Shown: positions 2,239 to 64,000, counted from the stretch's first letter. The stretch: 64,000 bases of DNA from Amoebophrya sp. A120 (GCA_905178155.1 CAJINV010000006.1:3906130-3970129); one strand, 5' to 3'. The notes: generated from the letters alone by a model not told the origin. Made by a program: numbers and translations.

Positions 2239-4615
2239 TCACAAGTCTTTCCCCTGCGCGCATGAACTGCAAAAGTATCGTACTCGTAAAAATGCATTAC
2301 AAATTTCCTCCGCATGAGAAATAAAATTTGTAATGCTGATTTACCTTAACACAGGGATTTGTAATGCATGATTGCAATACGAGTACGATACTTTTGCACA
2401 GGATAGCGCGACTTTGGTTGCAAAGCTCCGCTTCTCGATCCAGATCAGGTGGTACCCAAAGTGTATGCAAGAAAAAAACTATGTGAGTGTAAGTCTGTCA
2501 TGCAGAAATTGCAAAAAACTGTTACACGTGTCATGCTGGACGTGCGTCGTAAGCTACTTTCATACGTTTTCCACGTGCTAGCTGCGCATCACAGATATTT
2601 TTCCCTGTAATTATACAAAACAAATTTGTGATGCTGCTCTTCCTGTTCCTACACCTACAAAGTTACACTTACACAGTTTTTTCCTCGATAAACTGGGTCT
2701 GCACGGACAGTATCAAATGTAAATAAAAGTATGTGTTTGGGTGTGGATGATGCAAAAGAACTTGAAGGACAGTAAAGATCTGTGATGCGTCGAAAGGAAC
2801 AATGGCGAGATGTCTTCCACCAATCATGCTACACACAAGTGAATTTTTCCTAAGAAGCCGACGAAAAGTTGTCATGGTCATGCTGCTGTGCCGCACAGTA
2901 AGAAGAGGCTCAGACATGCCTCAAGGACATCAAATTGTCTGCATCTTTGTGGTTCCAGACCAAAACGACATATTTTTCACCCTGCCTAGGCCCGTGCACC
3001 GTGTGCAACGGCTTTTCCGGATCGAAAATCACGCGGTCAAAGGCGGGTACCATCTATGCCTTGCAAAAGTATCCTCGCACTCGTTGTATTGCAGTCATGT
3101 ATTACAAATCTTTTTCTTAAAGGTAAATCCGCATTACAAATTTTGTTTCTCATGCTGAGGATGAAATTTGTAATACATTTATACGAGTACGATACTTTTG
3201 CACTGCATACCATTTGGCCATAGGCAAAATTCCCGAGCGATCCGCCCTGCTTGCCGCTGGGGCAGGAAACGTATGAAGTGGTTGATGAAGAATTTTGAAT
3301 TTTTCTTGGTCGAGAACAACATGCAGATCAACAACATTCTGCTACTTAGAACTGAAACAAGAGAACTCTCTTTCTGTAGAGCAGTCAAATGCATGACATT
3401 GACCAGCACGAGTACAATAAGCTCTACAAGCTGCTGCTTGTCTACTACACGACCAAAAACGACGACGAAAAATTCATATTGCATCACTCTCATCATGGAT
3501 ATAGAGTGCTTCCTGGCCAATTCCTCGAATCTTTCCAAGCGGTTGTCGATTTCGCTCTTTAGCTCCTGGGCTTTCGATTCCTGTGGATGTTGTTCCGTTT
3601 CATATTCATCTTCAGATTCATGCAAGACAGATCTGTCGTCTGTTTCATCGCACAACATTCGTTTTCCTTTTCGTATTGACATTTATTAAGCATATACAAA
3701 CCTGAGCAGCTGCTAAAATTGTTGCACGAAGACAAACTACTGTTGACCTCTGAAACGAGAATGTGACGGGCTGTGGCGCGATGTATCGGTTATGGAAGGC
3801 GGAAAAAGTGAATTTTCATTTTCTAGCAGTAGTTGCAGATACGAAGTCAAGGCATTCCTCAAGCGGGTGTCCTTCATGCTTTGTTCGACGTCCTTTGTTC
3901 ATCAGCTTCACCTGATTTTATTTCGTACCAATCTTTATCTCGTGGAAAGAAGTAATGATAGTTTTCAGCACTGTGCACCATCCTCCTGTCGTGCCCTCGT
4001 ATCTACTGCTCTACATCATTGTCATTCATTCTTTCCACTTTCCATACTGGCGACAGCAGACCGATTTTGACCAGCGGCGTGCGAATGAATTCCGGAATGC
4101 CGCAGACCATGATCAGCAGGCCGTATCCTGTGCAAAAATATCGCACTCGTACTAATTGCAAATATGCATGACAAATCCAACTTTCTACCTGAAATAGCAT
4201 GACAAATTGCATTTTTGTTCTTGGGAAAATTTGTAATGCAATCCACACTAGTACGATAGTTTTGCAATGCATAGGCCGATGCAGAAGACAATTTGTATCC
4301 ACCAGGCGCCAGCCTTGCTTTCCGGCGCATCCTGGTCGATATGCCTTGCAAACATGTCCTCTGGGTCCTCTAGAGTTCGTGATGCATGGGCATCAAATAG
4401 ACATCATCTATACGTACCTGTCATGCAAAAACGCAGTTTGCGTTTACCGCATGGCTGCGTACTTATTGCAGTGCCCCCATGGAAGCCCACTCCCGTAATT
4501 CAAATTGAAACAAAGAACGCTTCGTAGCATGACAACTTTCCAGTCCCAGATGACACGTTTGCAGTTTATAGACGATGACCTGCCTGGCGCCGGACTTCGG
4601 AACAGCGGCCGGCAT
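2239..4615 (-). CDS. Parvulin (PpiC-type) peptidyl-prolyl isomerase with an N-terminal transmembrane segment; 9 introns
   Basis: Hand-spliced protein: MPAAVPKSGARQV..WWIQIVFCIGLLIMVCGIPEF..HRATARHILVSEESKAQELKSEIDNRLERFEELARKHSSCPSGKQGGSLGNFAYGQMVPAFDRVIFDPEKPLHTVHGPVQTQFGYHLIWIEKRSFATKVAQGKDL*. Parvulin motifs ARHILV, SCPS..GGxLG.F..GQM and TQFGYHLI are present. Introns are 7 introners, one GT-AG intron (3581-3747) and one degenerate intron (~3272-3503). Confidence 0.9.
3791..4046. mobile_element. Introner family H (single, old copy)
   Basis: Ends TATGGAAGGCGGAAAAAGTGAA and TTCATTCTTTCCACTTTCCATA are imperfect inverted repeats. Removal fuses the TM exon to the parvulin domain in frame. Confidence 0.7.
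4124..4273. mobile_element. Introner family A (representative; ~24 copies, mostly ~145-210 bp)
   Basis: TIR TATnnnnTGCAAAAGTATCGTACTCGT; TSD GGCCG here. Other copies: 2261-2405, 3055-3209, 6534-6681, 8886-9035, 10110-10261, 18736-18883, 22761-22955, 25456-25610, 28841-28995, 29094-29258, 30978-31160, 31749-31904, 33635-33788, 33835-33989, 34884-35032, 35444-35653, 36343-36497, 41055-41205, 41596-41747, 46037-46233, 46257-48305, 62870-63019, 63876-end. Confidence 0.92.
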
Positions 4616-5972
4616 CCTTTTGCTTCTCTTGCTCGGCTGAAGATGACTGTCGTGTAGCAAATAAGTGAAGAAGGAATGCACTTCACGACGCGGACAAGAT
4701 GAAAATGGTAGATACTCCCTGGACCTGAAAATGTCGTGGCTGATGTTTACTGTCGGACTGGTTGTTCCTGTAGTTCTTCATCTTCTACGTTGTACTAGGC
4801 GAAATGGTTGTAAAAAAACACCTTCCAGCACATCCGGAAAGAGAAAGACAAAGACAACAAAACAACTGATATTCATGAGAATGCAAAGTAGTAGCAGTAC
4901 TGCCTACTAGAGCTGCTACAACTGTAGAAATGATCTGGAGCAGGGGAACCAACGAGAAAACCGTGGGAAAAAAGCTTCTGATAATAGTAGACATGCAGTC
5001 GTGGTTAAACAAGCTCGCAACTCGTCTTTAGCATCTACTTGTACGGCGAACACGTTTATTTCTTGATTTCCCTTCGTAACAAAATCCTTCGTTCGTCTTC
5101 ATTGAAGACGAACGAAGGACGCTTTTCATCAAGCTGAACTTGCTCGGTCGTTTTCGTTTTTTTTCTATATCATATATCAGCATGAAGTTGAAGAACATTC
5201 TACAGCCCGAGCATAGAAGTGAAAAATTTTCTCAGCATCTACATCACTAGAACTACGCAGCGCGACAGCAACACTATTTGCTTTCGCGTGTTGTGGTTCT
5301 CGTTGTGGTCATCTGCGCCCTTGATGGTCGCCGTTGTTCATCTCGTATAAGAGGAGCCAGTACTTTCTCTTCCACATGGATCTGAGTACTTATTCCATAT
5401 TTTTGATGCTTCGATTTTTCTCACTTGTCGACCTGCTCCGGGGATCTAATTAGTAGAAAAACTGGCGTTAAAAATACTCGAATTGGATGCGTCATGATCT
5501 CGCAGCTGACCACCAGCTCCTGCTGCATTTTAATTTACTTGATGAAAAGCGTGCTCAGACAGAATCAGTTCTAGTTCTACAGCGTTGATATTTTACTTCT
5601 CCACCTTCGGTCAAATCCTACATGATAATCTGCAATCGATCCTCTTCCTTCTTCCTTGATGCGTTGCAAACATATCCCGCACTGCTTGTGCACAAAAAAA
5701 ACTGCGGTAAACATCTTCACAAACAAAAAATCTGAAAGTGCACGTGGCCACACACCAACCCCTTTTCAAAGAAAATTCGGCCTACGAAAGCCTGAATTAG
5801 AATTTTTCCCGGTACTTATGTATACTATAGGCGAACAAGGTATCAGGCGGCACCATCAACCTGTTTTGTTCGTCGTCGTCCCCCTTCTCAAGTTGTCTAT
5901 AATAGAAGTCCACGCGGCGCTCCTTGATGTGCGTAGGTACTTCTGTAGTCCCAATTCAGCTCGAATAGAGAA

Positions 5973-7172
5973 TTAACGTGGCGGACGGTTCTCCTGGTCA
6001 CTCCCGTCGGAGTCGTCAAAAAGTCCCGCTCGCCGGACTACCTCATGGGGACCTTGCAAAAACAGAGCTCCGGCGCCGTCGTCATCGTGTCTCATCCGTT
6101 CGGCGGCATCTTCAAACTCAGGCTGCAACTCTCGAATGATATCCGGGCCGAAATTGCCGACTCGTCGTTGGCCGGCACGACCACGAATTCGCCGCGGCGC
6201 ATCGGGGACGGCAAGATCCCTCCGTTCCCTTGGCGGCGGTGTCACCTGCCGCGGCGGGGAACCAGCCTGCCGCTGCGCGTTTTCGAAGTTGCGAAGCGCG
6301 TTCTGCGCCGGCCGGTGGAGATCCGGGCTTGGGGATCTTGGAAGATCTTGGTAGGCACGGAAAGGAAGCGCCCCCACACCCGCCGCCGGAGGAGCAGCTG
6401 CTTGTGCTTGATGTTCTCCGACATTAATTCTGGCAAAATCTTCGAAGCCCAATAAACCTCTGGTCGTGCGCCGTTCTCGCTGCGGTGCGGCGGGAGGGGA
6501 ATTTGGTACCGGAGATCGGGATCTCCTAATCCTTATCCTGTGCAAAAGTATCGCACTCGTATTGGAAAAGTCACGCATTACAAATCTTTGTCTTAAGGTA
6601 AATCCGCATTACAAAATTTATTTCTCATGCTGAGGAAATTTGTAATGCATTTATACGAGTACGATACTTTTGCACTGCATACTCCCACCCAGCTGTGCTG
6701 GTCCCGGTGGGGGCGAGGCCGGAGGACCAGCTCGACGCCCAACGGGGGGAGAAGGGGTCCTCAATGTTGGGCGCGGGTCCGGGTTGATCCCTTCGCGGCG
6801 CTGCAGCCCTTGGGGCAGAGGCCCAACAGGTGGAAGTAGGTGACCGGGCCCCCCGCGATGAAGGAAACCAATTTGCTCTGGCTGCTGGTGTAGTGCTCCG
6901 GTGTATGTCGTAGCGGCGGCACTCCCGGCAGATGCAGAGCTTCGGCCCGTGGAAGTGGATGGCGCTAGTGCTACGTCATAAACATTATTCATCCCGGGGG
7001 ACGAAGAGGAGGAGCTGCTGCTGCCGGCTCCCAGCGACAAACCCGACACCAGCAGCGGGAAGGAAGCGAGATAGAAGTAGACCACCACGGCGGTGGTCGT
7101 TCTTGGGGTCCAGAACAACTGCAGCATTCTGAATACGTTCTTTGCCTGTAGTAGAGGGCTGATTGAAAACAA
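5973..7172 (-). CDS. Pro/Arg/Ser-rich low-complexity protein with one introner (6534-6681)
   Basis: ORFs 6651-7172 and 5973-6578 join in frame (..AQLGG-x-RRSRSPVP..) after removing the element plus 5 bp. Start uncertain. Confidence 0.6.
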
Positions 7173-8195
7173 CGTCGAGTTCTTGACGGGAAAGAAAAGA
7201 AACTACTTTTTAAAAGAGGAGATGTGGAGCTACTTGGTATTCTTTCGAGATCGTTTTTTAGTTGTGAGATAAACTTGAAAAAATTCTACGGAAATATATA
7301 GAAGTTCACTGCTATTTTTATGCAGCAGAGAACTAGTATAACTCAGCTGGAAATAATGGAAATGAGGCGCGATGGAAAGTAGAGCTCGCAACTACCGATA
7401 TTATCAAGGAATGATAGATCGATAATATGGCGAAACAAATTCCACATGTTTTGTCACCCATTCTGATCTTTGACCTTGAGAAGTTTCGATGATCTTCAAC
7501 TGCTGGCGCCACGGGCCAACAGAATGACAATACTAGACGTCGTGGAAATATAACAAAATCTGAATTATCGGATCATCGACATCATTCGGAATTTTTCTCA
7601 CGACTCTCAGTTCTCTTGGCACTTTGTTGAACATCACAGATCTTATTTTTGTCCCCTTCGAGTGATCCTGATCTGTCTTTGAAGAAAATTTCTTTGCAGT
7701 CCAGCAGATCTACTTTTACCAGCACCAGCAGTAGATCCGGATCGCGTAGAACCCAAACCAAACAACAGCCCTCATACATGCTGGAGTTCTTGCTGCTCCG
7801 GACAACAACTCCCTGTGTAGAAGTATACATACTTTATTATAGACTTACTACTTATACTAACTTTCTCTATCTTCAAAAAGTCTTGGTTCCCAATTGCATC
7901 TATACTTAGAACGAAGGAGAGAATGTTTGTTGTTGTTCTTCCTGCTGCTCGTGCTGGTAAAAATTTTGTTCTGCGTTTTATTTCCTGGTTCGTTGTCGTG
8001 CCGTTGGACGTACTTAGTTACCACGGAGCAACTGAACTACTAGCAGTACTCGAGGGTCGTGAGGAGAACAGCAATAAAGTTCCGCCTCCTCTTGGTCTTC
8101 GATTTGATGCTAACGGGCTTTTTACACAGGAGGATCTTCATGCAAGAACGTACTTGTGACCTATACGTAGCTACGGTGTCGTCTGCTCTCCTTCT

Positions 8196-11100
8196 TCAAA
8201 TCACCTTCGCCTCCTTCTATCCCACGAACAAACTATTTCACTGTGACGCTTTTGCAAGATCTGCATCACAAGTTGAAGTTTGTTAATACACATGACCGCA
8301 GAAAAGCTACCATGCGCGCTTCCCAAGGGATGAGATAAACACGCTTAAAAATTCGATGTTCTATGCAGGTGTAGCAAGACAAATACTTCTGTGTTGCATT
8401 CTATGCACCACAAGTTCACAGCGAAACAGTTTTTTCTTGCGATACGTTCTTCAGCTTATCCACTAGCTCGTCGACGTCTGCCACCTTCTATGAGAGTGCA
8501 CAACTTGTTCCCCTCCCACTCATTTGTATGGCATGAACAACAGCATCACAAGCAGCGCGCAGACTGTGTCTTTGGCATCACAAATCGTCTCCTGCGCAAG
8601 GATTCTAGTGCTGTTTGAGGTCGTCGTCGTCCCAAAAGCAAGATTTCTTATGCATCGAGTGCTTAAAGGGAACAGCGAGATGTCATGTCGCGTACTTCTA
8701 CTTGGTATTATGCATTACAAATGAGGAAATCAAGTGGGGTTGTGCAGTCTCATACCTTCACCCCGGCCGCCCTCACCGGCGGGTCCTCGACGGATAAAAT
8801 CTTCATTTTCGGTGCCAAATCGACGCCGAACGACGCGGCCTCCACCTTCTCCAAAGGTTTCTTCTTCGCTTTCATCAGATTCGGCTATGCAATGCAAAAG
8901 CATCGTACTAGTATAAATTGCATTACAAATTGGCTTGGCATTACAAATTAAATTGGTAATGCGGATTTGCGTTAACAAAAAGATCTGTAGTGCTTAAATG
9001 CAATTAGTGCGAGTACGATACTTTCGCAGTGCATATCGGCAAGGTCGCGTACCGTGGATCGTTCAACCGCAAATCGGCCGTGATCACCGCCGGCAGGGAA
9101 AGCTTCATCGTTTGAATCCCCGCGTCGACTTCCCGCTCCGTGGTGAGAGCCTCCGCGGTATGACAGTGCACAATTCCCCGTCCCTCTCATTTGTCATGCA
9201 AAATCACAATTCCACGCGCTGCGCTGCTTTGAGGCACCGTTTGCTTGACAGATTCATCTCGAGGAAGCCTAAGCAGTGCTACGCTACGCGCATGATGAAC
9301 TTGTCATGCTAGTAAACAAAATGCGACACACTTTGCCCCCCCATTGTGCCATGGCCGCAGATGATGAACTTGTCATGCGCAGACTTCATTTGCGCTGGTG
9401 TTTCTATTGCTGCTCACGCAATACAAGCGAGGGGGAGGGAGAGTGGTGCACTCTCATAGGCGGTGCCGTCGATGGAGGAGGTGAAAGTGGACTGGGGCCA
9501 GTTGAGCAGCCCCGCGAGGATCTGTATGCTACGAAAAGAGTGCTACAGTTGCACATTTGTAGTGAATTCAGCAACACAAATTTCTCTGCATGAGAGAGAA
9601 ACCCTGCAATGCAGAAATCCTACGGGAAAATAAACAGCTCTGAAACGAGGCTCCTATGCATATCCGGCATGACAGAGCTTGTCTGCTTTGCTTGGCCTGC
9701 AACACAATGTGTAACTGTAACACTTTTTTCTTGCGATAATCTGCCCCACCTGGTTACTGTCCGAGTCGATGGACTGCTTACTATCAAAGGCAAAAGCGTC
9801 TGGGTCTGGAAGGTTGGAACTTGTGATGCTAACTTTCGACTCTAAAAAAATCTGCATTGCATGACCAGCAAGAGGAGTCTAGCTTTTGCTACGCGGGGAG
9901 AGCGTTTGCCATGCGGAGTAGGCATCAGGAAGGGTTCTAAAAGTCTGTGATGGTAGGGCATGCATCACAAACAATCCTGGGTCATGCAAAATACGCATGA
10001 CAAACCCGGCAACATCCCAGACCCAGACACTTTTGCATTTGATATTTACCGCACAAAACCAAATTCGGACTCTCCTTTTCTACCACTTTCTGCAACAGCT
10101 TCGCCGTCGTATGAAATACAAAACTATCGTACTCGTAGTATTGCGATACAAATTAGCTCAGCATGACAAATGGAATTTCTCTTGCTGATTTAGCTTGAAA
10201 ACGCAATTTGTCTTGCATGACTGCGATTAGTACGAGTACGACACTTTATTTGCAGAGGATACACCGCCAGAGGTTGCAATTCCTGGTCGGTTCGCATGTC
10301 GGTCGTCAGCAAAATCGCTCGGTCTGCACCCATCGCGAGACTCTGGCGCATATGGATTGCAAATATGTCTGGGTGTGGAAACTTGTAATGCTCAAAGTGA
10401 ATGATAGACGCGCCACAATACGCAGCTATGCATGACAAATTTTGTGGCTGCCATGTCTTTACGTATTCCGCATGGCAAACTGCCTTTTCGCATGACAGTT
10501 AAGAGGACTCTTTCGTGCCTACGCAACACAGATTCTCGAGTCATGCCAGACAAGCATGACAAACTTGCATTCTTTCAGACCCAGACATTTTTACATTTGA
10601 TAGCGCAGCACTTCCTGCGATTTCTCCGCCCCGATGGAAACCGCGATCAACTCTGTCAGCAGACCCTGTTATGGCAGCGTCAGGACCGAAATTGGCAAAA
10701 AGTTGAAAATGAAAAACAACAAAATGTGTAATGCACAAAATGCAATCTTCCTCCACACGAATCCTGTATTGCAGAGCAGGCTAGGAAGGACACTGGAAGC
10801 CTGTTTGAGGATAGACATAGGGGGGGCTGCTAAAGTAGCATGGCAAAAGATCCCTTTTTTCCCCAAACAGCTTGACAAACTAAACTCGGGTGATTATACC
10901 GAAATTTGTCAAGCGCCGCCCAGAAATTGGGCTTGCAACTGGTATCGAGGATTTTACGCATCACAAATTCATTTCAACTTTGTCGATTTCGACTCTGACG
11001 TTTCCATACCTTTTCCTTCATGCGGATACCTTCCTCGACCGCGATCTCGCAGAAGTGTTGTGAGGAAAAACATCCCCAACCCAATTAAATTTGATGTCAA

Positions 11101-11396
11101 CATGTCGAGCTGCATGCCCAGGATGTGTTTCATGCGCAGCAAGCCCGTGACGAGCTGCGAAGTTCACAAAACTACCACCTTCCTTTAGCGGAAATTATTC
11201 CATCTTGACAACAACGATGGGCTAGGGTTAGGGACGTTTCTACTCAGGGAGATACGAAGGGGTTCATGCTCATCTTCACATTCTTGATTTCGACCCCGGA
11301 CTTGTCTTTTGCGACGCGCACCTTGACCGCGTAATCAATGACGCGCTTGACACACACGAGTGCCTTGTTCTGGAGAAACGGAGACGGACGAAGCAT
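8196..11396 (-). CDS. ETFB: Electron transfer flavoprotein beta subunit; 10 introner introns
   Basis: Spliced protein contains [128 protein letters not shown], the classic ETF-beta motifs. Confidence 0.95.
8489..8754. mobile_element. Introner family I (representative; ~6 copies)
   Basis: TIR TATGASAGTGCACAA followed by a C-rich tract; TSD CCTTC. Other copies: 9159-9458, 18979-19296, 24508-24744, 44407-44641, 45335-45546. Confidence 0.82.
9525..9738. mobile_element. Introner family C (representative; ~12 copies, mostly ~210-235 bp)
   Basis: TIR TATSnnnGAAAAAAAnTGT; TSD ATCTG here. Other copies: 2464-2690, 8218-8444, 26966-27191, 28586-28793, 32476-32704, 32739-32947, 35109-35317, 37269-37478, 37980-38190, 43295-43528, 50707-52708. 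Confidence 0.88.
10351..10602. mobile_element. Introner family B (representative; ~31 copies, mostly ~230-320 bp)
   Basis: TIR TATnnnnTGCAAAWATGTCTGGGTCTGGAA; TSD GCGCA here. Other copies: 2711-2988, 4340-4570, 9782-10044, 12275-12537, 16315-16565, 17105-17393, 17443-17699, 18359-18629, 19362-19622, 22159-22430, 23247-23499, 25001-25259, 27809-28070, 30676-30936, 31430-31696, 31960-32211, 32992-33262, 34040-34317, 34468-34726, 35705-35964, 36049-36309, 36562-36825, 37536-37798, 41924-42801, 45706-45962, 48344-50016, 53689-53963, 60389-60705, 60810-61133, 63538-63792. Confidence 0.92.
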
Positions 11397-12231
11397 GGTT
11401 GATGGTTCTTGCCGTCAAAACTTTTTTATCAGTGTTCTTTTTTGATTTTGCGAAATTTTCTTTGTAACTGTATCTTTTTGTACTATCACGAGCGACCGGC
11501 GTGGAATACGAGGTAAGTGTGTTTAGTATATGCGCATGGCCCAACTAGAGCAATACACGACCTTTCTTTTTCATCTCGCAGTAATTGTAGTTACACAGAT
11601 TTTTCAAATTCGTCCACAAGGCTGATCATGGTTGTGATGCGTTGCTTCTCTAAACTTACTCTCAACTACAACGCTAAGTACAGCAACCTCATCTCTCGTC
11701 TCGTCGTCAAATGTCTTCGCTGGTACAGCAGCAAGAGCAAGGTTTCATTTACGCAGATGCTCTTGAAACTGCAACAAGCGCTCGCCTAGTGCGGAAGACA
11801 GATCACACCAAGAACGACGAACAAAGAACAGGCAACGCCTTTTCGCGGAAACTCGTGTGGCCGAAACAGCGGTCATTCCAGTAATATGCCAAGATTCCGA
11901 CCTCATGCGAAGAGAGGATCTTCACTTCTACAGAAGAACACGACTGGTGGCGCCACCTCATCAAGGAGCCGATCTGTCGTCTCGCGCAGAAGTATGGTAC
12001 AACGTTGTGTCGGGAGTTGTCCTCGCCATGCTGCTAGCTCTGAATCTTGTTTGAAACAACCGAGTACAACTTCATCTCCAGCAGTAGCGAAGCGGTTTTT
12101 TACTTACTGTGCAAAAACCGTGTCAAATGCGTCGAGTGCGACCCACGACCACTTCTGATTTTATTCAAGAAGTTGTGCACGACTGCAGTCAGAAGTATAG
12201 TTGCAGTTCTCGTGCAAAGAATTATCCTCCT

Positions 12232-12950
12232 CAAGGCTTCGCATCCGGCTGGAAAATGACGCCAATGTAGGTCGTATGGATTGCAAAAATGTCTGGGTCT
12301 GGAAGAATGCAGGAGTTTGTCATACAGATTTTGCATCACCCATGAGGTCTGTGATGCTGGCCGAGCATCAGAGATTTTGCGAGGGCTTTCTGATGCTCAT
12401 ACCGCATGAGAAATGCCCTCTCCGCGTAGCACAAATTGCACCTCTTTTGCTCTTCATGCAATACAGTTTTTATGTAGATTCCAAGTGTAGCAACACAAGT
12501 TGTATCCTTCCAGACCCAGAAATTTTTACATTTGATAGGTCGGTATGGTTTCGATCGTGATCCCGTCGCTGGATATGGATGTGTCAGGATTGAAATCGAC
12601 GAAGATGAAATAACTTGCAATGCATAAAATAGATGAAAATTGTAACCCAGATTCCAAGTGGTGCATGACAACTTTGAGTAAGGCCGAAATCCAGTTTGTC
12701 GTCCTGTTTGGGTAAGGAAGACGCCTTTTGTCATGCTACTTTAGCAGCTCAGTTTCATTCTACTCCTCAACAGGCTTACAATCTGCCTCACTTGCCTACT
12801 CTGCAAGACATGCACTTTGTGGGCTGCATTTTATGCATGACAAACTCTTTCAACTTGAACTTTGACGATTTCAATCCTGACATTCACTCCCATACTGGAC
12901 TTCTTGAAAATGAACACGTCGCCCTCGTACCCACTCGTGTCGCCAACGTT
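12232..12950 (-). pseudogene. 3'-terminal fragment of the PIMT-like gene (copy 1)
   Basis: Encodes NVGDTSGYEGDVFIFKKSSDGITIETIPTYIGVIFQPDAKP*, near-identical to the ends of copies 2 and 3. Homology stops near 12950. Confidence 0.6.
12574..12894. mobile_element. Introner family G (representative; 3 copies)
   Basis: TIR TATGG..TGTCAGGATTGAAATCG; TSD CTGGA with an empty site at ~16280. Other copies: 10670-11008, 17955-18273. Confidence 0.85.
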
Positions 12951-17850: not shown

Positions 17851-17879
17851 AAAGTCATCTACTTCATCGATCGCGCCCC

Positions 17880-53482: not shown

Positions 53483-56400
53483 TCTTGTTTCTTCTTTTTA
53501 GACAGCTTGCGCTGGTCCAAAAGTTGCACGGGTAGCAGTTGAGTAGAAGTACCGGACGACGGCCCTCCTGCGGCCGCGGCGGTCGTGGTAGTTTCCTTTG
53601 CCTCTGCCGCTGACGTGTCCATTGGGAGCGGGGCGTTGACGGCGAACGCCTGCTGCGCTGCTGGGGAGAGTTGCTGTAGTTCAGTCGCTATGCATTGCAA
53701 ATACGCCTGGCGTCATGGGAAATTGAAATAAGTATAAAGATAGCAACGTCCGTAATGCATGAGTGCGAGTGCGTGCTTTTCTTGTATCTATTTCTCCGTG
53801 CAGGAAGCCAATTTGTCAGGAGGAATACGGCAAAATTCGCGGCATCACGCGAAAAATTTCTGATGCGCTCATGCCGTACAAAGCATCGCTCTAACTGTGA
53901 TGCAAGACTCAGCAACACAAATTCGCTGCATCTTTCCAGACCGAGACATATTTGCAATGCTTAGTCGCAGCTGCTCTCACTGCCGCTTCCTCGTCTTCCT
54001 TTTGCTTGGGCAGTTCCAGGGGGTTGCGCTCGGTCTTCCTTTTGCTTTTCGTCTTCGTTTTCCTACCTTAAAATATTTTCAGAAATGAAGGTAGCGCAAT
54101 TCATGTATATTCCTTGTTCTTACTAAAGTCAAAGGTCAGAGTCAGACTTGTTCGCGCAACGTACAAGTATATCAACGTAAAATTATTAAACGCTAAATAG
54201 AGCATAAAAATTGAGAATGAGAACACAAATGTAAGTAATCGAAGATCACCTGCCTTCCCACGGAGCTGCCGTTCCTTTTCCGGTGCGGGCCCCTTGTAGT
54301 TCCGAACAATTTTCCCGACAACTACATCCGCAAGCTGGTACTGACAAAGAAACATGACCTGCGACCGTAGGAAGAACCGCGCAAAGGCCGTAAAGACGAT
54401 GTTGCGCTGCATGTTTCCTCGCCGAGCTGGTACTGTTTCACCACGACTTCTGCAACTTCTGAAAACGCGAATACACTGACCGGCAGTAGCAGTTTCCGTC
54501 CCCGTGTCCGTTTTGTCGCCCCGGACAAGATAATGTCCAGCACGAGAACTAGGGGCGACCACTTTTCTTATTTCTTGTGTTTCGCGAAACTAGAAATACT
54601 GACTTGCTTGGCGCGCAAAGGTAAAGTCGGTGTAGTGGAAAGAACAAAAGTTTTAGAGCGTGAGCGGATTACTTATGTCGTAAGTAAAGTATCGCTTTTC
54701 TTCCCCGTTCTTGTTGTGAAGGCCCCGAAGGCAAAAAGAAAAAATGTCTTCCTTTTGTTTTGCTTTTCTTGACGCCATGGACCACGAGCCATATTATTTA
54801 CAACGAAGCACGACGATGGTATGCAGCTTTGACGAGTACTAACAAACAAGCCCCAACATTTAAGAGGATCAGCATTCCTGCGACGACGTTGATGTCTATG
54901 TCTGTTCACTGCTTTTTTTTTTCTGTTTCCATGAAGCGACACGAAGATCACGACCACAATATTAAACGAACGAAGATCTTCATAAATAATCGATTGAGCG
55001 AAGGCCGAGCAATCGATGAAGATTTTTTGTTTGTTGGGCGGGGCGACACAGAACCGCTTGGAAGTTTTTCTTTCGCCTCGTCACGTCGTTAGCGCTACTT
55101 GAACAAAAATACGAACTGGCCAAACAACTTGCGTCCATCGATGAACATGGGGGCAGATGGGGGCGACAGGTGACCGCGACAGGTGAAAACATAAAGCAAC
55201 TTACACTGAATTACTGCGCCCCGCATATTACAGTGCGCTGCTGGCGAAGCAGCTAGCGTGATCTCTCGTCGGAGATTGTGTATCATTGCCGAGAACACCA
55301 GAGGCTCGAAAAGGTGATGCTAAGCGTGAGCCGCCTACGCTTCCACGTCGCCATCGGTCAGCATGCACATTTTTGTACACTGTCACTGTCTGTCAGGCAT
55401 GCGGAAAAATGCATTGCAATAAAATTTCATACACAGTTTCCACCCTCATTTCCGTGCAATACAAGAAGAAACCATGTGCCAGAAGAATTTGCGTTACGCA
55501 GTCCGAAAGATATTGGCTGTCACGAACTTTTCTCTTTCGATCAGTAGCGACATTTTTGTGCTATCATCTTGCGCCAGGAGATCCAAGAACCGAAGCCGAA
55601 CGTCGACCGAGGGGCTTTTAGGTAATTCCTGTTCCTCTTCAAATTTTTACACTGAACCACTTCCACTGCATACAGAAGTCTGCTGCTGGTGAAGCAGCTA
55701 GCGTGATGATCCCTCGGAGATTTTGTTTCATGATTGACAAGAACACCGGCGGCTCGGAAACGTAATATAAGGGTGATGTGCCACCTCAGCCGCGGCTACA
55801 ACGGCGAGTGCTTTGTTTTTGATATGCTCTGCCTTTTCCCGTGGTTTCTTGAACCCAAAATATGGTAAAGAAATAAATTTGTCGCATGTATCAAATGTTT
55901 ACTATTATTTCTTGTCCCATGTGTAAATAATGAAATAAGTCCAGCAGGTTTGCTACGTTAGCTTTCGCCGAACCTACTGGGGCAGGCTATGCCGTGAAAG
56001 TAGGTGGAACTTCTACGCCGGGAAAACAACAGCTTCATAGGTGGTCATGCGAGCTTCTTCTTCGGCTGTCTTGCGTCTTTTGTCGATTGCGCTTGTGCTG
56101 GTGACTGGAAACAAGCGCGACGAGAGAACAATACCTGCGATGATGTTGTTTTAGCGATTTCGATTTGTCTCGCACATCACACGCCGCGAGAAGTGGGTTG
56201 CGCGAGAGTGCCGCTTCGAACAAGTACATCTTCACAGACAGACCACGGGGCCGAAAGATTGATTTGTTGCATGACAAAGTAGAAGTCTACTCCTTCTACT
56301 TCTAGCCTACAAAAGTACAAAAGTACCTTCTAGTATTCGCTTTCGTTGCCAACTTCGCAGAGGGTACTTATAACTTCGCCTTTTGTACTGCTTCTACTGG

Positions 56401-58663
56401 TGCGCCTACCTCCCTCTGTCGGTTGCACAGGTTCTAGATCTAGATCAGACGCACGACGACGGCGAGAGTACCTGTATAAAGTGATGCTTCGTGGTTTCAT
56501 CACTCGAATGCAGCACGAAACACCCACACGTCGACGTAGAACCCAGTGTGGCTCTGCTGTTGTTCAGTGGAATCTGTATGATTATTGAAATCTGTTCGAC
56601 TCTAAGCTTTAGATTACATATCTGTATAAGTTTAAGTAGCTCGTCACAACAGTACAAAAATACCTTCCGTTCGGTGTCAACTTCGCAGAAGATGGTATTT
56701 CGCATGTGGAAGTACTGCAGCGTCTACTTTGACTGTCTTCATCTTGTGTTCATTGCGCTGGCTCTGGTACAAAAGCAAGACCAGAGATGTCTGGTACAGA
56801 AGCAGCGACCTGTGTGTAAAGTGGTATTGAGTGATTCTTTCATACTAAGGGGAAAAGTTCAAGAATAAGAATCCGAGCAAAAATTGCTTAGGGGGCCCAG
56901 CGACGGTAGGTGCTGGGTCGCGGTGTTGTAGTCTTTTTGTAGTAAGTACAAGACAAATGCCACACACAGAAGAAAAAGGAGAAAATACAAAAGGCCGGCT
57001 GCGGCCCCACCCCCAGGCTGCGGCCCGGCGCTTCTATGGCCCGGCCACCGCCCCGGCCCCGGCCTCGCCCGATGCTTTTGTTGGCCGGGGAACCCAAAGG
57101 GAGCCGGAGCCCAATTCTGTGGCCCTTTCGGAGGGCCAAAAAATCTCAAGGGGGGGCCTCCGCGGGGGCTTTCGCGGGGGGGTCTTCAGGGGGGTCGATC
57201 TTTCTATTCTTGAAAACTCAACACCCATGCTATGGTGCCGATTTGGGGGCTCAGAGGGGGGGCGCCAGTTTGCCGCTTCCGGACCCTTTTCGGAACCCCC
57301 CACCCTGTCCATTCTTGAAAACTCAACGCCGATTGGTAATTGCCTATTTTCATGCTAATCACGATCTATAAGCAAAAAGGCGCGCGAGTATTGAGACTGC
57401 CACTTTTTTGTACGGAGTGTCTCCTCCAGACCGATCCGAAAGTGGGCGCGCGCGATGCTTCTGGGCCACCCTCACGAGCCACCCTCCCCGGTTTTCCCGC
57501 TGGAGATGTACCTCGCCGACCTCCAGCGCGGAATCCATTTCGTCATCTGCTTCTGCGCCCTCGTCGAACCCGCCTAGCTATTTTTGCAAAAATTCTTATT
57601 CTTGAACTTTTCCCTGTAGTATTTCACTTACTTACTTTATTCATCACAAAAGACCCCGCCCCCACAAGGAGGAGGGTCCGACTTTACATACCGATACCTG
57701 CATGATGAAGATCTTTGCCGCGAATCCACGAAAGAATCCTGTGGTGTCAGTGTCACTGAGTGACACGAACTTCGCATCGCAAAACAACCCATACAGATCC
57801 TACAGCAGCACCGTAAACACTTACCTTCCGCCGCCCGGTCCAGATTCCTGCTGCATAGACTACCCGACAATAGGTCGTGCTGCGCTACCCGACAATAGGA
57901 GAAGCCGTCTTCGCATCGCGAGTACTGTTGTAGTCGACCATAGGTCGCGCCGCGCTTCTTGCGGTTGTTTCACCCCGTGCGCAGTGCCCCTTCCAGAGAG
58001 GTTCGTTCTATATGAGTGATGCTTATGGTTCTACATAATAATCGGAAGCGTGCTCTTGTGCTACTTGTAATCCCGGTAAACATCTGAAGTTGCAAGTGTT
58101 AGGATAAGATTTAAAATTTATAATCCAAAACGGTTCTGATTATTAACGATCTTCGCAATGCGGAAGTAATTGGGTAGGCTATATTTGTAATATTTTTTGT
58201 AAGATAGAAGCTCTTGTGTATGAAAAAGTAAAGTGCAATAGGAGGTGATCAGTGCCAGCTGTAATATACGATATCGAAAACCATACTAAGAAGAAAGATG
58301 CTAAAAAATGGAAATTGTTCAAGCAACAACAAAAACGGATATGATCATCTGGAAAAATGCATTCACATTCTGAAGCAAATCGTTGAAAATTTTAAATTTG
58401 CACTTTTTGGTGTTGGTCGGTATCGACGATGTAAATCTCGTATTCGCGGATGTAGGTCTCTCGGATGTAAATCTGATCGGGTTCGCATGCGGTATCAAAG
58501 TTAAAGACGCAAAAAAATGAAAACATGAAGTAGTAGTAAACAAAAGAACTCCCTTGATGGGTTTTGCTGTGCTAAACAAAAATCTGCTTTGTGCATTTGT
58601 TTTCTGGTTCCACCATCCAGCGCGATCATGCAGAGCAGTTCTTTTATTCAGAATCATACTTAC

Positions 58664-60786
58664 TTAGCGATACTTACTTAGCGAAACCACCTTGCTGCCA
58701 TCCGGGCACGGGTCGCTCATATCGCTGTATGGGTATTTGGCGCCGTTGTTGTATGGCGTTGGTCTTTGGTGTGCGTCCAACGAGCACAACTCGGTGATAA
58801 AAGTCGAGCCGGTGTCGAAGTAATTCCGGCACAAACCCTGCTGACCCGGGTCGGCTTGGCCGGGGAACTCGGCCATCATGATGTTATCGCATTCCTGCTT
58901 CTGGTGAACTGGCGCTTTCAAAACCGGGCAGCCACGGTCGTCCAATTTGAAAGGCACGTTGTCGTTCCCCATCGACATGGCATCGCACCTGTAGTTGCTC
59001 TCAGGTGGCAAGGATAGGTGGCAACGGCCGTCGTTGTTCTTGGTGAATCACTTCCCCATGCCCCGCTTCCCCACCTCCCCACTGCCCCATGGTGGGGAAG
59101 TGCTTCCTCCGTGGCGGGGAAATGGGGAAGCCAACCCCCGCATCCCCACCACCCACTGTAATACCTTCTCGCCCGCAGCTGCGCTCAACCACGTACCTAC
59201 CTATGTATGTGGCCGCCCGCCACAAACCTGGCGGCAGACACAGGCGGCCGGATGTGCAACAACGCACGGGGCGCGCAATCTTGTAAAGAAACATGACACG
59301 GGAAACACGGTGGGGGCACACTAAAGGGCCACGAAGAACGAAGGCGAGTAAGGGGGGGGAAGAGCCGAGGCACGGAGAGAAGGGGAGGCGCGTTCAGGGA
59401 AAAGCGGCAAAGCGGGCGGCGGAGAAGCACCGCCGCGGCCCCGAGCCCCAAACCCTAGACCCTAAAAAACAAACCGGCCGGCGGCTCCATGCCTCACCGC
59501 TCCAGCTGCAGTGAGGTGGTGCAGGGCAGGTGGGGAGGCAATGCAGAGGACGTGCGTGGGGCAGTGCTGCAGGTGCGGATGCGCGCCGTGGGGAGGTGGG
59601 TTAATGGGATGGGAACGTGATTCACGTCCTTATTCTTGTAGGGCTGCACGAAGACCTTGGTCACGACCCACCCCGCCATCTTCTGCGGTCCTCCCAAACC
59701 ATAATTTTTATCGTAATTCATACAACCGTTCTCATCGCATCCATCGCAATCCAGCATCTGGGGCGCCTGATTGTAGGTGCAGTAGCAATTGTTTTCAGCT
59801 GGTGTCGGTCCATCATGAGCCCACCACCGGTCGTCCGACATCGAGGACTTGTCCTGCATCATGACCGCGGCGAGGGATTTCGACTTGCCCTTTTTCTTGA
59901 CGACACACGCTATCAAGCTCATAAGTACCCCGCCCAGAAAAATGCAAACAAGTGTTTGCAATGCACAGTTCCCACACGGCAATTTTTTGTCTTGCATGAA
60001 GCCCATGCGATTCAGTTTGCCTTTGTTCAACAAGAATTTACTACCATGCGGCCTATGCAGCAGTAGAGCGGCCTAGTTCACATATACTCATTCTAGTATC
60101 GGAAGTTCTCATATTAGCATATTGCAACACTCCTGCGAAACCTCATAAGATGGTACTGATTCTGCTATGTGCAATTTGTGTTGCAGTTCTCGCTGATACT
60201 TCCTTGCGAGAAGATTCCGGAGAAAACTGAAAAGTTTTGCATTATACAAACACTCATCTTCCAACATTCGGGGTCTAGGGCACTTTCAATTTTGATACGC
60301 GCCTCTCCTTGTTCCGTGACGACCTTGTTCTCCAGAAAGGTTCCACCGACCTCGCTGCCCGCCCACGCGTTGGTAAACTCCAAATCCCTATGCATCGCAA
60401 CTATTTCTGGGTCTCGGGGGATGCAAACGAAGCTTACGATGCGCATTCTGCATCACAGGAAAATCTCGCATCGCAAACCAGCAAAAGTTGCTCATTTGTT
60501 TCCTATCGCTACCAGTTAAAGCGGATTTATTTTCATGCGGATTTTTAGGCATTTTGATTTTTTGAGACACCTTCACCTTCTAGAATGTCCAAGCTGCAAT
60601 GCTAGAGCTTGCATGCCAGCGCGTCTGGGCAACGAACCGAAAAACAGCATGACAAAGGTCTGCGTCTGCACCCTTCCAGACACAGAGACATATTCACATT
60701 CGATATTCCAGGGAGGTGGTGGTGGTGTTCTTCATCGCGGCGACTTCGGGTGTCGCACCAACCGCCACAAAGATCGCTTGCTTCAT
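58664..60786 (-). CDS. Cys-rich, possibly secreted protein; 3 introns
   Basis: MKQAIFVAVGA..|..GEAR|VVKKKGK..NNCYCTY..LDCDGCDENGC..YKNKD|NNDGRCHL..SKYR*, in frame after removing 60389-60705, 59911-60297 and GT-AG intron 59039-59625. Confidence 0.7.
59039..59625 (-). other. GT-AG intron derived from an unrelated inverted-repeat element
   Basis: Minus strand GTGAATCACGTTCCC...GGGAAGTGATTCAC-CAAG. Flanks TAAGGAC/CAAGAAC resemble a 7-bp TSD. Splicing is in frame. Confidence 0.7.
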
Positions 60787-62497
60787 TTTGCAACTTGCGG
60801 GACGAGCTTTATCAAATGCAAAAATGTCTGGGTCTGGAAGATTGCGAGGTTTGGTTGGTTGGTTGGATAGCGCCTGTCGCCGGTGCAGGTCCCGCCCTCC
60901 ATCGATTGAGGTTTGTCATGCTTGTCTGGCATGACCAAAAAGTTTGTGATGCGTGTCCAAGAAGAGACCATTTTTCTTGTCATGCAAAAACGTAGTGTGT
61001 CATGCGAAAAACGCAACACAAAGAAGCGCAGACATTTCTCATGCTTGGCCGTGCATTACAGAGCGAGAGCATTCACTATTCCCAACGAAGCATTACAAGT
61101 TTCCAGGCCCAGATGACATTTTTGCACTTGATAACAAGCTTGGGACAATAACAATTCCTGTTTCTAGCTGTAGAAAAGAGTAGGCTTTTCGTAACCGCTC
61201 CGAGGCGATTTAAACGAGGGTGTTCTAGAGGTGAGTCGTGTAACGACTAGCGGAAAAAAACTTGCTTTTGCTCCTGGATTTGTTGGTTTGTAAGTAAATG
61301 AGCATTTTTTACATCACTGATGGACGACGTTGAATGATGATGGTAATAGGCTTTCAGTGTTTCTTGCACGAAAGATTTTTTATCGGATGCTATAACTTAG
61401 TTTTACAATCGATTATATTGTCAAGTGGAGTCGCACGAAAATCTTAGCACCAGTTTACGACTTTTAGTTGTACTTCACGTATGAATGAGAAAAGATGAAG
61501 TGAGAACTTCCAGGCAATCGACGAAGAGGTGGACCTGACCAGAACGAAATTACAAATCGTACGAATCTTCCTATGTCGACGAACTACGCACATCATGTTC
61601 TGGTCAACTACAAAACGAATCAAAGGACGACGAGTGAGGAGAGTATCTCGGTCAAGTAGAAGATCTCGGTGCTACTACATCTATCAGCACTACTACGAAA
61701 GGCGTGCTTTGTTGTTCCCAGCGACAACCACGAGGACGATACGATATAGGATTTTGATTTTCTTCTTCTTCACCAAGCAATTCATAAAGTCACAGCTGGC
61801 TTGATACTGCTGACCCCAACCATCGAAAAGAACAGACTTGGTACTTGTTCATCGACTGATATAGCACATTAATATTTATGAACAAGGACGAGCTACTGAT
61901 CATGGTATGATACGACGGCTGCTATTGCTTTTCGACGAACTTCAGTTTACTTTTAAAACTTCATCCAAGCATTCAACACGCCAATAACGCATGCACTACT
62001 ACATACCACAACCACTAACAGATTGTGATTGCGTCTTGTTAGCATGACATAGTAAAATTTTTTGAACGTGCTAGTACTGTATCACGCCAGTTCATCGGCT
62101 CAGAGTCTTTCGTTCGAACACACAGCTGGAAGTTATGTTTAAGTACTCACCAGCCCAAAAAATGACGTGCGTGGTGCAGCGTGCAGCACCTGCAGCAGGA
62201 AGACTTGGATATACAGGGTCATCAGGTCGAGAAGCGTGTGAAGCTCAAGCTTTTTTTGTTGTAGGGGTAATTACAAGTTGTCCTTTTTGTTTCATATCAG
62301 GAGCGTGCGGCGCAAACCGGCGTGCTGACGGTTTCAGGGCGTTGAAAGGTGCGGGTTCTCCACGACCTTTCCGCCAGGGTTGTGCTGCTGTTGACACAGG
62401 ACGCAGATGTTGTACCAGATGTGATTGTGAATGCGGTGCCAATAGAAGAAGTAAGTATTTACACGACATGTCATCATCATACGGAAGCTGTCGCGTC

Positions 62498-64000
62498 CTA
62501 CTTCTTTGACGTCGTTATCCTGAGTAAAAACGTCCCCACCCCATAGTCAAGACGGAGATCTCGCAGCACAAATCGATAAGTTTTGGGAGGCAAGCATGAC
62601 AAGTTCCTCTCTGTAGTGTAGTGCAGTTTTTCAAGCACAGCCGCAACACAAATCCATCTAGTCATCCTGTTACTGTTCACATCAGGATTACACAAAGTCC
62701 AAAACACGACTGGAAACGCCTCTCGTGGGGATGCGCATTACAAATCTTCCTGTAACTGCAAATCTGCATGACAACTCTGGGGTGGGGACGTTTTTACTCA
62801 GCATAGTCGTTCCCGCTTGTTTTTGCTCCTCCTGGTCTGTTTTCACCCCGTACATTTTCTTCAACAATTTATGAACTGCAAAAGCATCGTACTCGTAGTA
62901 ATTGCTGTTATGCATGACAAATCTCTCTCCGAAGGTAAAACAGCATTACAGATTTGATTTGTAATGCTGAGCTGATTTGTAATGCGATTTATACTAGTAC
63001 GCTACTTTTGCACAGGATACAATTCGTTTTCCTCCAATTTTGCCTGGATATCCGCCTTTTTCTGGCGTATGGGGCTCTCAAATCGGTTACCTTCTCAGCT
63101 GTTCCATGAATTTGTCATGCAAAACTCTCATCAGTATCACTATCATCAAGCTGCTTCGCATGACAAATTTCCGAAGGGCTAAATGAGAGCATCTAAACTT
63201 GTGCCGAACCTGTAATGCAAAGGCGCGTAAGCTTTTCCCTTTCACTTTTGCGGTTCTTGCATTACAAATTTCATGTAACAGTTGAGAATGTAACTGACTT
63301 GAGAACGCCATATGACGGTTTCGCTGGTTGTAGTAGAGCAGGACGAGATACCTGGAGATCACATCAAGAAGAGTGTCGTTGACAATGATTTAGTTCAATT
63401 TTTCATTTTCATCAAAAAAAAGCCTCTTAGGACCACCAGGGTATTCATCTTGTTTATTTTTTGCATGACAAACTATAACTACACAGCACGCAAATAGATG
63501 AAGATTTTAGCAGGATCATTTATATGGCTGTGTTTTATATCAACTGCAAAAATGTCTGGGTCTGGAAACTTGTGATGCAACTGCAAGTCCGTGAACAATA
63601 AGTGCTCTGTGATGCGCCGCAAGCATGACAAGTTTTTTCGTGCTTCTGTGATGCGTATTTCGCATGAGAAACTGTGCTTTTGCATGACAGCCAAGAGGAC
63701 CTCTTGGTGGCCGCGCAATACAGAGTGCAGAGTCATGCCAGACTAGCATGACAATCTTCCAGACCCAGACATTTTTGCATTTGAATTTGATACTTTATAC
63801 CTTCCGTCCACATTAAACCCGGACAAACTGTCCAAAGCCAGCTTCGCATCGTAAATATCGTCGTAGACCACGAAATATGAACTGCAAAAGTATCGTACTC
63901 GTATTGCAATCTATGCATCACAAATCTTTTTCTTACGGTACATCAGCATTACAAATTTTCTTTCTCATGCTGAGGAAATTATTTGTATAGGCATTTCTAC
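62498..64000 (-). CDS. 3' part of an uncharacterised gene running off the window; at least 5 introners
   Basis: Short exons between introners, ending ..LLKKMYGVKTDQEEQKQAGTTSKK*. Confidence 0.5.

Follow-up and report, generated by a model that had tools for sequence, protein, structure and literature searches.

The 64,000-nt stretch of Amoebophrya sp. A120 DNA analysed here (the window) raises the question of how coding exons interrupted by dozens of transposon-like elements, most of whose boundaries cannot form GT-AG introns, yield intact messages, and by what machinery. A sequence-only reading had counted about 95 elements; our catalogue holds 94 whole ones (93 in the main catalogue and 50707-52708) and one cut off by the window end at 63876-64000. 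The catalogue combines a terminal profile, with three low-scoring rows dropped from its 79, a relaxed scan and elements chosen by eye; two old copies joined it only after RNA-like contigs had been aligned. TAT...ATA ends, also claimed by that reading together with terminal inverted repeats (TIRs) and a 5-bp target site duplication (TSD), are found in 84 of the 94 elements (83/93 without 50707-52708), and the TSDs, mostly 5 bp, are perfect in 54 of 93 elements, have one mismatch in 23 and are worse in 16. A scan without the TAT requirement returned 64 pairs of TIR and perfect TSD, of which 42 were TAT...ATA, and five shuffles gave 3-16 TIR and TSD pairs with no TAT...ATA among them. The proposed minimum of nine families is plausible, although the exact number was not reproduced: BLAST clustering gave seven multi-copy clusters (26, 20, 11, 6, 3, 3 and 3 copies) and 22 singletons, some visibly related. 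Families hold copies in both orientations. The spliced gene span of 17.6 kb holds 89 elements, compared with five within 16.8 kb outside it (Table 1).

The host genes had been described as conserved housekeeping genes, with ten elements in ETFB. The ten ETFB elements are confirmed, and subtracting each of them with 5 nt yields a 262-aa protein that is identical to database protein P0001 and has a Pfam ETF match; a representative-library protein search returned further ETFB relatives only. A parvulin-like gene is also recognisable, through a weak Pfam Rotamase match (E=0.025) of its product together with motifs of this family. Most hosts, however, are not recognisable as housekeeping genes. For the 2264-aa and 292-aa genes, the exon ORFs compared with Pfam gave sub-cut-off matches only, and the 425-aa protein of the P0121 gene gave none; the agreement of this gene with P0121 spans the first 419 of 425 residues, and three of its four elements reach 1.7-2.0 kb via nested inserts. 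The claim that removing the element and one TSD restores the frame is borne out by ETFB and by the 2264-codon ORF across its 40 elements.

Table 1. Coordinates of elements, introns and host genes in the window
Feature	Position	Strand	Basis or remark
Element field: 94 TAT...ATA TIR elements, mostly 145-390 bp, 5-bp TSDs, and one truncated by the window end; ~29 kb in total	2261..64000	.	Host genes on minus strand
Largest family, ~260 bp, 26 copies, both orientations	9782..63792	.	BLAST clusters
Second family, ~150 bp, 20 copies, both orientations	2261..63019	.	BLAST clusters
Third family, ~210-230 bp, 11 copies, both orientations	2464..43528	.	BLAST clusters
Parvulin-like PPIase gene, 8 elements plus a conventional GT-AG intron at about 3580-3747	2150..4786	-	All joints in X4
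Parvulin-like gene, element starts	2261, 2464, 2711, 3055, 3272, 3791, 4124, 4340	-	X4 joints
Intron with exactly pinned ends GT..CG, old element 3791-4046, TSD 2/5	3787..4047	-	X4 joint 3786/4048, zero slack; register 4 only
Intron of 358-codon ORF, from element 6534-6681	6530..6682	-	X4 joint 6529/6683; registers 1-4 allowed, 5 excluded
ETFB, 11 exons, 10 elements	8196..11396	-	Product equals P0001 at register 4 only
ETFB elements 1-5	8218-8444, 8489-8754, 8886-9035, 9159-9458, 9525-9738	-	ETFB gene
ETFB elements 6-10	9782-10044, 10110-10261, 10351-10602, 10670-11008, 11056-11254	-	ETFB gene
Tandem paralogous exons with 96-97% similarity, differing in their elements and in the sites of these	12230..20307	-	Paralogue comparison
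2264-codon ORF, function unknown, 40 elements inside	21264..38302	-	ORF restored on removal
Intron with exactly pinned ends GT..AA, element 22761-22955	22757..22956	-	X1 pieces 22431-22756 and 22957-23240 adjoin; register 4 only
1170-bp element with nested insertion (~25770-26644)	25742..26911	-	Missing in its entirety from transcript contig; nested part missing in L129
Element missing from related strain; empty site, one TSD	26966..27191	-	L129 alignment
Element missing from related strain; empty site, one TSD	27284..27518	-	L129 alignment
292-codon ORF, 8 elements including 41924-42801 with nested insert	40022..43575	-	ORF only; no RNA joints seen
P0121 gene (425 aa), elements 46257-48305, 48344-50016, 50228-50475, 50707-52708	46195..53497	-	Protein match

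Retention of the elements in mature transcripts, which would have contradicted their removal, was not what we found: at 48 of 48 bridged elements the RNA-like contigs are short by exactly the element plus 5 nt, these contigs (X1 and X4) being assemblies of a single study's two samples, presumed to be RNA on indirect grounds, as no run registered as RNA contained the stretch. In one 7408-nt X1 contig from the region of the 2264-codon ORF, 39 of 39 elements are gone between anchored pieces, and the missing lengths (5806, 1138, 2312, 514 and 200 nt) equal the summed elements plus 5 nt each. The X4 joints show nine of nine elements removed, and an ordinary GT-AG intron is spliced out in the same contig; ETFB lies outside the cover of both contigs. 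Exons down to 11-15 nt and nested 2-kb elements are treated alike, elements with a TSD identity as low as 2/5 are removed exactly, and so is the old element 3272-3501, although its terminal stem is not predicted. Element-bearing pieces are also present in RNA-like runs. Two RNA runs available as raw reads yielded 182 (X9) and 224 (X10) reads, almost all of them partial matches to element paralogues, with the exons uncovered. A contig with DNA-like coverage (X5, kind not on record) is continuous through both ends of 22761-22955 at a depth of 47. Repeat-to-repeat joints from X5 dominated the joints recovered in this comparison.

The cut very probably sits at one fixed register. Mismatched TSDs place the intron, on the sense strand, from the last base of the upstream TSD through TAT...ATA to base four of the downstream copy, and the same register, with four bases kept from the upstream copy (register 4), applies in either element orientation. 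All ten junctions in the register test allow 4; two allow 4 only, four exclude 5 and four exclude 3 or lower. Besides the two introns whose ends are exactly pinned (Table 1), ends pinned to registers 3-4 or 4-5 read AT..TT, CT..GT and CT..GA, all pinned junctions coming from minus-strand genes of one window. Where the TSD copies differ at positions 2-4, the transcriptionally upstream copy supplied the base in 6/6 junctions. The conserved columns of ETFB, like its identity to P0001, are reproduced under register 4 alone (none of 75 homologues has G at column 48, which is always D or C, while 74 have V or I at column 110 and 70 have N at column 257), and register 4 is the sole one common to the four junctions of the P0121 gene, with P0001 and P0121 being annotations and so not independent evidence beside RNA mapping. 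Codon plausibility gave no clear preference among registers, the highest score going to a cut after two bases.

The sequence-only reading held that most boundaries cannot form GT-AG, and 80 of 88 genic elements in the window indeed cannot under any slide; 4/88 are GT-AG at the true register and 8/88 under any equivalent slide. Over the larger set, G+1 (136 versus 133 expected), terminal AG (39 versus 31 expected) and GT-AG ends (10/461) are all at chance level, the bases at +1, -1 and -2 show no association in combination (p=0.44), and the old copies show no drift towards G+1 or AG. A G enrichment at +1, seen among window mismatches (7 versus 2), was rejected as it was gone in the loci (7 versus 13). 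U+2, on the other hand, deviates in 0/417 compared with nine deviations at the mirror position, and A+3 in 2/417. Because U+2 and A+3 are largely built in by the TIR, the evidence lies in the asymmetry against the mirror: 0 versus 7 deviations in the window, 2 versus 12 in independent loci (p=0.013) and 2 versus 19 pooled (p=0.0002), an asymmetry that is significant only after dropping 20/349 rows with at least two terminal deviations, judged to be mis-called ends (15 versus 20 and 13 versus 18 before, not significant). At +3, the pairing-neutral change of A to G, with G-U as its outcome, occurs less often than the mirror change that breaks pairing, a sign that the sequence is read. U+2 and A+3 appear to be read by sequence, and removal appears not to be purely structure-guided. 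Compared with U2 introns, the elements have the conserved U+2/A+3 and lack GT/GC...AG ends. Conservation of A-7 reached p=0.06, and TAT/ATA deviates in 1.5% compared with 4.4% mismatch between TSD pairs, a weak comparison as the TSD figure sums two copies.

A terminal stem is predicted with a probability >0.4 in 98% of 83 elements, with poor pairing at stem positions 4-7. G-U versus A-C stem pairs number 70:47 in the window and 182:176 in the loci, and the pooled p=0.2 does not establish selection for RNA pairing. Branch-like TTGAT at the 3' end has no orientation bias (75 versus 73), the internal motif GCATKACAAA was discarded as a branch signal for want of sense bias (265 versus 276), and an Rfam search returned no matches.

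As for insertion, related-strain loci (L108 and L129) have empty sites with one TSD, and tandem paralogues likewise give empty sites with one TSD. TIRs, a constant TSD and empty orthologous sites make the elements MITE-like. The composition of the insertion target is close to the coding background (smallest p 0.01 over 21 positions). Pfam found no transposase in 26+13 sequences and gave no match of any kind for the ORFs in long elements (three listed, one in the window and two in loci), and two viral-contig scans gave no matches. Insertion seems to have dyad symmetry, with both orientations, a 5-bp TSD and no target preference, whereas removal is oriented to transcription, a contrast that makes two machines likelier, namely a transposase that inserts and a splicing machine that removes. 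Of the earlier proposal that one shared machinery mobilises and removes all families, a single removal machinery is likely, as the tested families share their geometry, but its use for mobilisation is not supported.

We propose that these are non-autonomous transposon-like elements in coding exons, and that a remodelled major spliceosome probably finds both sites from the paired ends rather than from GT/AG. The elements insert in either orientation without clear target preference, and their presence differs between strains and recent paralogues. An integrase-like DDE transposase acting in trans would make the 5-bp stagger and would likely bind both the TAT ends common to the elements and their internal motif GCATKACAAA. 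The ends are predicted to pair as a stem, and the excised piece is N-TAT...ATA-NNNN, with one unpaired base 5' and four 3' of the stem; its loss deletes exactly one TSD and brings back the original codons. The machine would still read U+2 and A+3 but disregard +1, -2 and -1, a pattern to be expected from a spliceosome that has kept the contact of U6 with U+2 and has lost the checks of G+1/G-1 and A-2. In the yeast P complex, U6 A51 pairs with U+2 and G+1 pairs with G-1 (10.1101/212811), and A120 is reported to have U2, U4, U5 and U6 along with almost all proteins of the spliceosome, with U1 not detected (PMC7789003). The A of ATA at -7 might, speculatively, serve as the branch point. The balance tips slightly towards a remodelled spliceosome as the candidate catalyst, one that retains the check at +2/+3 and takes its measure from the stem. 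Against it, neither drift towards G+1/AG nor a 3' bias of TTGAT is seen, although both might be expected of a spliceosome. More tentatively, A120 may run a second splicing code, written N-UAU...AUA-NNNN: the transposon's terminal repeats would act as a ruler and replace U1, U2AF and the GT-AG check, possibly with the branch at A-7 or with a new non-spliceosomal enzyme.

A less probable but substantial alternative is a non-spliceosomal endonuclease-ligase, or a separate RNP, that recognises the end of the TAT:ATA helix and cuts 1 nt before and 4 nt after it, a route also suspected for euglenid nonconventional introns. Full indifference to +1, -1, -2 and their combinations, the lack of drift to GT/AG and of branch-site or orientation bias, and the like handling of very short exons and nested elements would suit such an enzyme, but the oriented constraint falls on U+2 and A+3, like a GUA donor, the rarer pairing-neutral change at +3 suggests sequence reading, and A120 retains a spliceosome, though one with U1 not detected. 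We know of no candidate enzyme for non-spliceosomal removal. Euglena does offer a precedent, with a fixed-spacer code and introns released as full-length circles, according to the portions of the two reports drawn on here (PMC12501133, PMC11282704).

Precise DNA excision in some life stage, similar to that of ciliate IESs, with transcripts made from element-free genes, is very improbable. Transposon-like symmetric ends and the exact loss of the element and one TSD would fit it; however, a symmetric cut would likely mix the bases at the mismatch junctions, all six of which take the upstream one, removal stays exact at 2/5 TSD identity, the conservation of the ends is oriented to transcription, element-bearing pieces occur in RNA-like runs, and the DNA-like contig is unbroken through 22761-22955 in one run. 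Removal at the RNA level is very probable; the preference for RNA splicing over DNA excision in the sequence-only reading is thereby strengthened, and its structure-guided removal is refined by the apparent sequence reading of U+2/A+3. That splicing by an ordinary spliceosome takes place at variable or cryptic GT/GC-AG sites close to the element ends, the odd ends being direct-repeat alignment artefacts, is scarcely credible. Perfect TSDs let most junctions slide and 8/88 are readable as GT/GC-AG, but 80/88 are not and pinned ends including GT..AA and GT..CG contradict it.

P0001 and P0121 carry the label Amoebophrya sp. A120, and the label of P0001 together with its identity to the spliced ETFB identifies the elements as the A120 introners described by Farhat et al. 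(2021) and already named in the sequence-only reading; host label, TAT inverted repeats (IRs) with an A-run, direct repeats (DRs) and non-GT-AG ends all match. In the part of that report used here, A120 IRs start with TAT and have a later A-run, introners are ~240 nt, removal is supported by RNA-seq, a transposase was not found, DRs are 3-5 nt (5 bp in its Fig. S19), and the sites are "variable" relative to the hairpin, with IRs 1-5 nt from them (PMC7789003). The elements here, in contrast, have one 5-bp TSD, a fixed 1/4-nt register, an invariant U+2, no recruitment of G or AG, and empty sites. In strain A25 the IRs begin with TTA, and strains AT5 and Kv have canonical introns. The class is already known; in the literature searched, we found no fixed cut position described for these introners. 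Against the 2021 account of variable sites with the mechanism left open, a fixed register and a two-base oriented code make the question testable, and the register provides an annotation rule for tens of thousands of A120 introns. Scarless removal explains how a transposon can flood coding exons without cost to protein sequence. If the second code is true, members of this transposon group become scarless introns wherever they insert and whichever way they face, and such a site-independent intron is a possible tool if the enzyme is found.

Like these elements, Euglena nonconventional introns are mostly non-GT-AG, with direct repeats, paired ends and fixed spacers to a short paired motif, but the code given in the source excerpt is N3-CDG...CHG-N5-6 with a purine opening the exon (PMC12501133), whereas here it is N1-TAT...ATA-N4 with an unbiased exon start. 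Our elements thus lack the euglenid code and share paired ends (the fold being predicted) with fixed spacers. As the two lineages are unrelated, the resemblance would be convergent, and the parallel suggests repeated evolution of ruler-type splicing. Introns of Fritillaria borealis are also MITE-derived with TIR and TSD; they use a modified U2 spliceosome and keep preferred AG-AC and AG-AT ends, so far as the cited parts describe them (PMC11282704, 10.1101/2025.08.15.670264), whereas terminal dinucleotides here are free save U+2. Introners of Aureococcus, Polarella and Symbiodinium share a DNA-transposon origin, either orientation and loss of the TSD on splicing, but depend on the TSD or the element for a recruited GT/GC/GA and AG (10.1101/2020.10.14.339549); the A120 elements recruit none.

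Gozashti et al. (2025) list A120 TIR DNA elements of similar sizes, including a family 38 described as "Ginger, 5-bp TSD, TA/TA termini" and as homologous to a transposase-like region of Copia/Gypsy (PMC12130899). In 23 of its 58 A120 rows, the TSD calls are 2-5, the splice sites are mixed and classed as co-opted or carried, and a fixed non-GT-AG register is not stated (PMC12130899). Our elements share TA..TA termini with the integrase-like DNA transposons IS3EU/GingerRoot, and their TSD resembles the 4-5-bp one of Ginger2, whereas the TSD of IS3EU/GingerRoot is usually 6 bp (PMC10045372) and that of the elements here is 5 bp throughout.

We found 94 elements in the window, plus one clipped by the window end, in keeping with the estimate of about 95 made in the sequence-only reading. 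An unbiased search for inverted termini flanked by perfect 5-bp repeats returned 64 pairs, 42 of them TAT...ATA (0 in five shuffles). Among the 93 tabulated elements, both termini are intact in 83 and the target-site duplication (TSD) has at most one mismatch in 77. BLAST grouping gave seven multi-copy families and 22 singletons; both orientations are present within each of the four largest families, and the internal motif GCATKACAAA is ~26-fold denser within elements than outside. The first ETFB exon is 100% identical to a database protein labelled Amoebophrya sp. A120, and a second search with another exon likewise matched an A120-labelled protein. The element class is known, as that reading had held, because Farhat et al. 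(2021; PMC7789003) already describe A120 introners as TAT-starting inverted repeats with 3-5-nt direct repeats, their removal supported by RNA-seq and their splice sites termed variable, with U1 not detected and an introner transposase not found.

Once every element is taken out together with 5 nt more, ETFB (10 elements) reads through as a 262-aa protein, and a gene with 40 elements becomes an ORF of 2264 codons. The earlier claim that removing an element with one TSD copy restores the frame holds for both genes but is not unique to this length: removal lengths of +2 and +8 also preserve the frame, so the reading frame alone does not set the removed length. Five sequencing runs (X1, X4, X5, X9, and X10) were compared directly with the window. 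In X1, a single 7408-nt contig tracks the long gene in six listed pieces, and the gaps between them (5806, 1138, 2312, 514, and 200 nt) equal the summed element+5 lengths over 25, 5, 6, 2, and 1 elements, respectively. Of the nine joint rows from X4, eight span nine elements and the remaining one spans an ordinary GT-AG intron. The tenth row (X1), which connects two paralogous elements, was set aside. The RNA nature of X1 and X4, two samples from one study, is a guess, supported by the spliced GT-AG intron and a near-empty intergenic bin in the RNA-like runs (1.8 versus 46 in the DNA-like X5). X9 and X10 gave no exon coverage, and the X1 and X4 contigs gave none of ETFB, so these were uninformative for removal. 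Element-like sequence with foreign flanks appears in ~80-200 RNA reads of X9 and X10, and would represent elements that are retained, or that lie in untranslated regions, at one or two loci elsewhere.

Where TSD copies differ, the product reveals the source copy of each base, and with it the register (the number of bases retained from the upstream copy). Four retained bases are permitted at 10 of the 10 junctions tested, with register 5 ruled out at four junctions and registers of three or fewer at four; two elements permit register 4 only (see table). The database protein matching spliced ETFB (P0001) is reproduced by register 4 only, which 75 ETFB homologues independently favour at three columns, and a 425-aa A120 protein (P0121) adds four further junctions, three of them across 1.7-2.0-kb elements with nested inserts. 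From the mismatched-TSD junctions and these two proteins, therefore, the intron on the sense strand is N-TAT...ATA-NNNN. A codon test on DNA alone singled out no single register. In elements shared between the window and the metagenome loci, TSD changes, scored by eye, fall at positions that are intronic under register 4. Removing the element with an 8-bp duplication at the standard register would leave one extra codon and keep the frame, as expected if the distance is measured from the ends of the element and not from the TSD. Neither a fixed register nor this code is stated in the openly readable text found on Amoebophrya, Syndiniales, and related systems, or in 23 of the 58 A120 rows in the PNAS supplementary table of introner families. 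Our verdict is that the elements are known and the splice code is a new variant.

Signals at the element ends were compared in 461 oriented elements, 88 from the window and 373 from the loci, where a codon model assigned strand (140 of 533 unassigned, 20 more excluded for at least two terminal deviations). Chance accounts for the frequencies of G at +1, of AG at -2/-1, and of the +1/-1 pairings, in line with the proposed removal without GT-AG. Although one element end mirrors the other in DNA, the two are conserved unequally. Deviations at U+2/A+3 versus the mirror positions number 0 versus 7 in the window, 2 versus 12 in the loci (p=0.013), and 2 versus 19 pooled, an asymmetry that reaches significance only once 20 of 349 rows, each with at least two deviations, are left out. 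G-U wobble could account for position +2 but not +3, and strand-biased mutation would drive the two in opposite directions. Folding predicts a terminal stem in nearly every element (one old element lacks it), positions 4-7 pair weakly, and a test for selection on RNA pairing gave no significant signal.

Among RNA routes, we lean towards a remodelled spliceosome, since the retained base corresponds to the U6-paired base in the yeast structure, the freed bases to those checked there by intron-intron pairing, U1 is undetected in A120, and tunicates offer a precedent. In the yeast P complex, U6 pairs with intron +2 and G+1 with G-1 (10.1101/212811); in the tunicate Fritillaria borealis, non-canonical introns are removed by a modified spliceosome (PMC11282704 and 10.1101/2025.08.15.670264). 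A Euglena-like non-spliceosomal route is a close rival. DNA excision, ranked behind RNA splicing from the outset, is unlikely, because mismatched TSD bases always resolve toward transcription, joints are exact even with nearly erased TSDs, and a DNA-like contig retains an element intact.

Public metagenome contigs, searched by pattern, yielded 139 loci, all of which bear the name JACKZZ01 and which total 675 kb with overlaps counted; three of them are orthologous to the window, with exons 93-98% alike. Two window elements are missing from the orthologous loci, a single TSD remaining, and the window in turn lacks three elements of those loci (two of them complete, the third visible only at its end). 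Tandem paralogues 96-97% alike bear different elements, and target sites resemble average coding sequence. The methyltransferase-like copies have each been invaded at different sites since duplication. No transposase was detected in the window and locus sequences scanned (Pfam, long elements). The TA..TA ends and 5-bp TSD may point to an integrase-like DDE enzyme, for which the note on family 38 (PMC12130899) and the superfamily features of integrase-like transposons (PMC10045372) are leads and not a test. One 815-bp locus element is near the size given for family 38 (808-810 bp), and its three ORFs have no Pfam match.

Coordinates of individual features (window positions unless a metagenome locus, L, is named)
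Position	Strand	Feature	Basis
3791-4046		Element, register 4 only	
22761-22955		Element, register 4 only	
12230-20307		Methyltransferase-like 3' exons in three tandem copies, PCMT match on upstream exon	
25770-26644		Non-TAT repeat nested within element	
L006 1020-1571; L012 2507-2760		Copies of nested repeat, 79-88% alike	
26700-26733; 36049-37619		X9 and X10 reads	
near 44150-44640		Degenerate element remnants	
46257-48305		Element with nested insert	
46339-48271		13-bp and 92-bp tandem arrays within that insert	
59043-59625	minus	Different inverted-repeat element (G...C ends), near 13-bp duplication	sequence
60810-61133	minus	TAT...ATA element, apparent 8-bp flanking duplication	
L075 4428-5242		TAT...ATA element, 23636 family	

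Only 5 of the 94 elements lie outside rough gene spans; together with the remnants, this suggests that copies decay when unneeded for splicing, or that insertion favours exons. Phase 0 introns are in excess without splice-site recruitment (168/88/117 in the loci; for the window, 30/17/24 with p=0.17). The nested non-TAT repeat, missing in locus L129, may be another mobile family sheltering within introns, and further nested inserts occur in the elements starting at 41924, 46257, 48344, and 50707. If the element with G...C ends is taken as an intron, it would run from GT to AG, stop 4 nt past the stem, and leave the frame intact with ~three added codons, which would make it a putative second, canonical-type introner.
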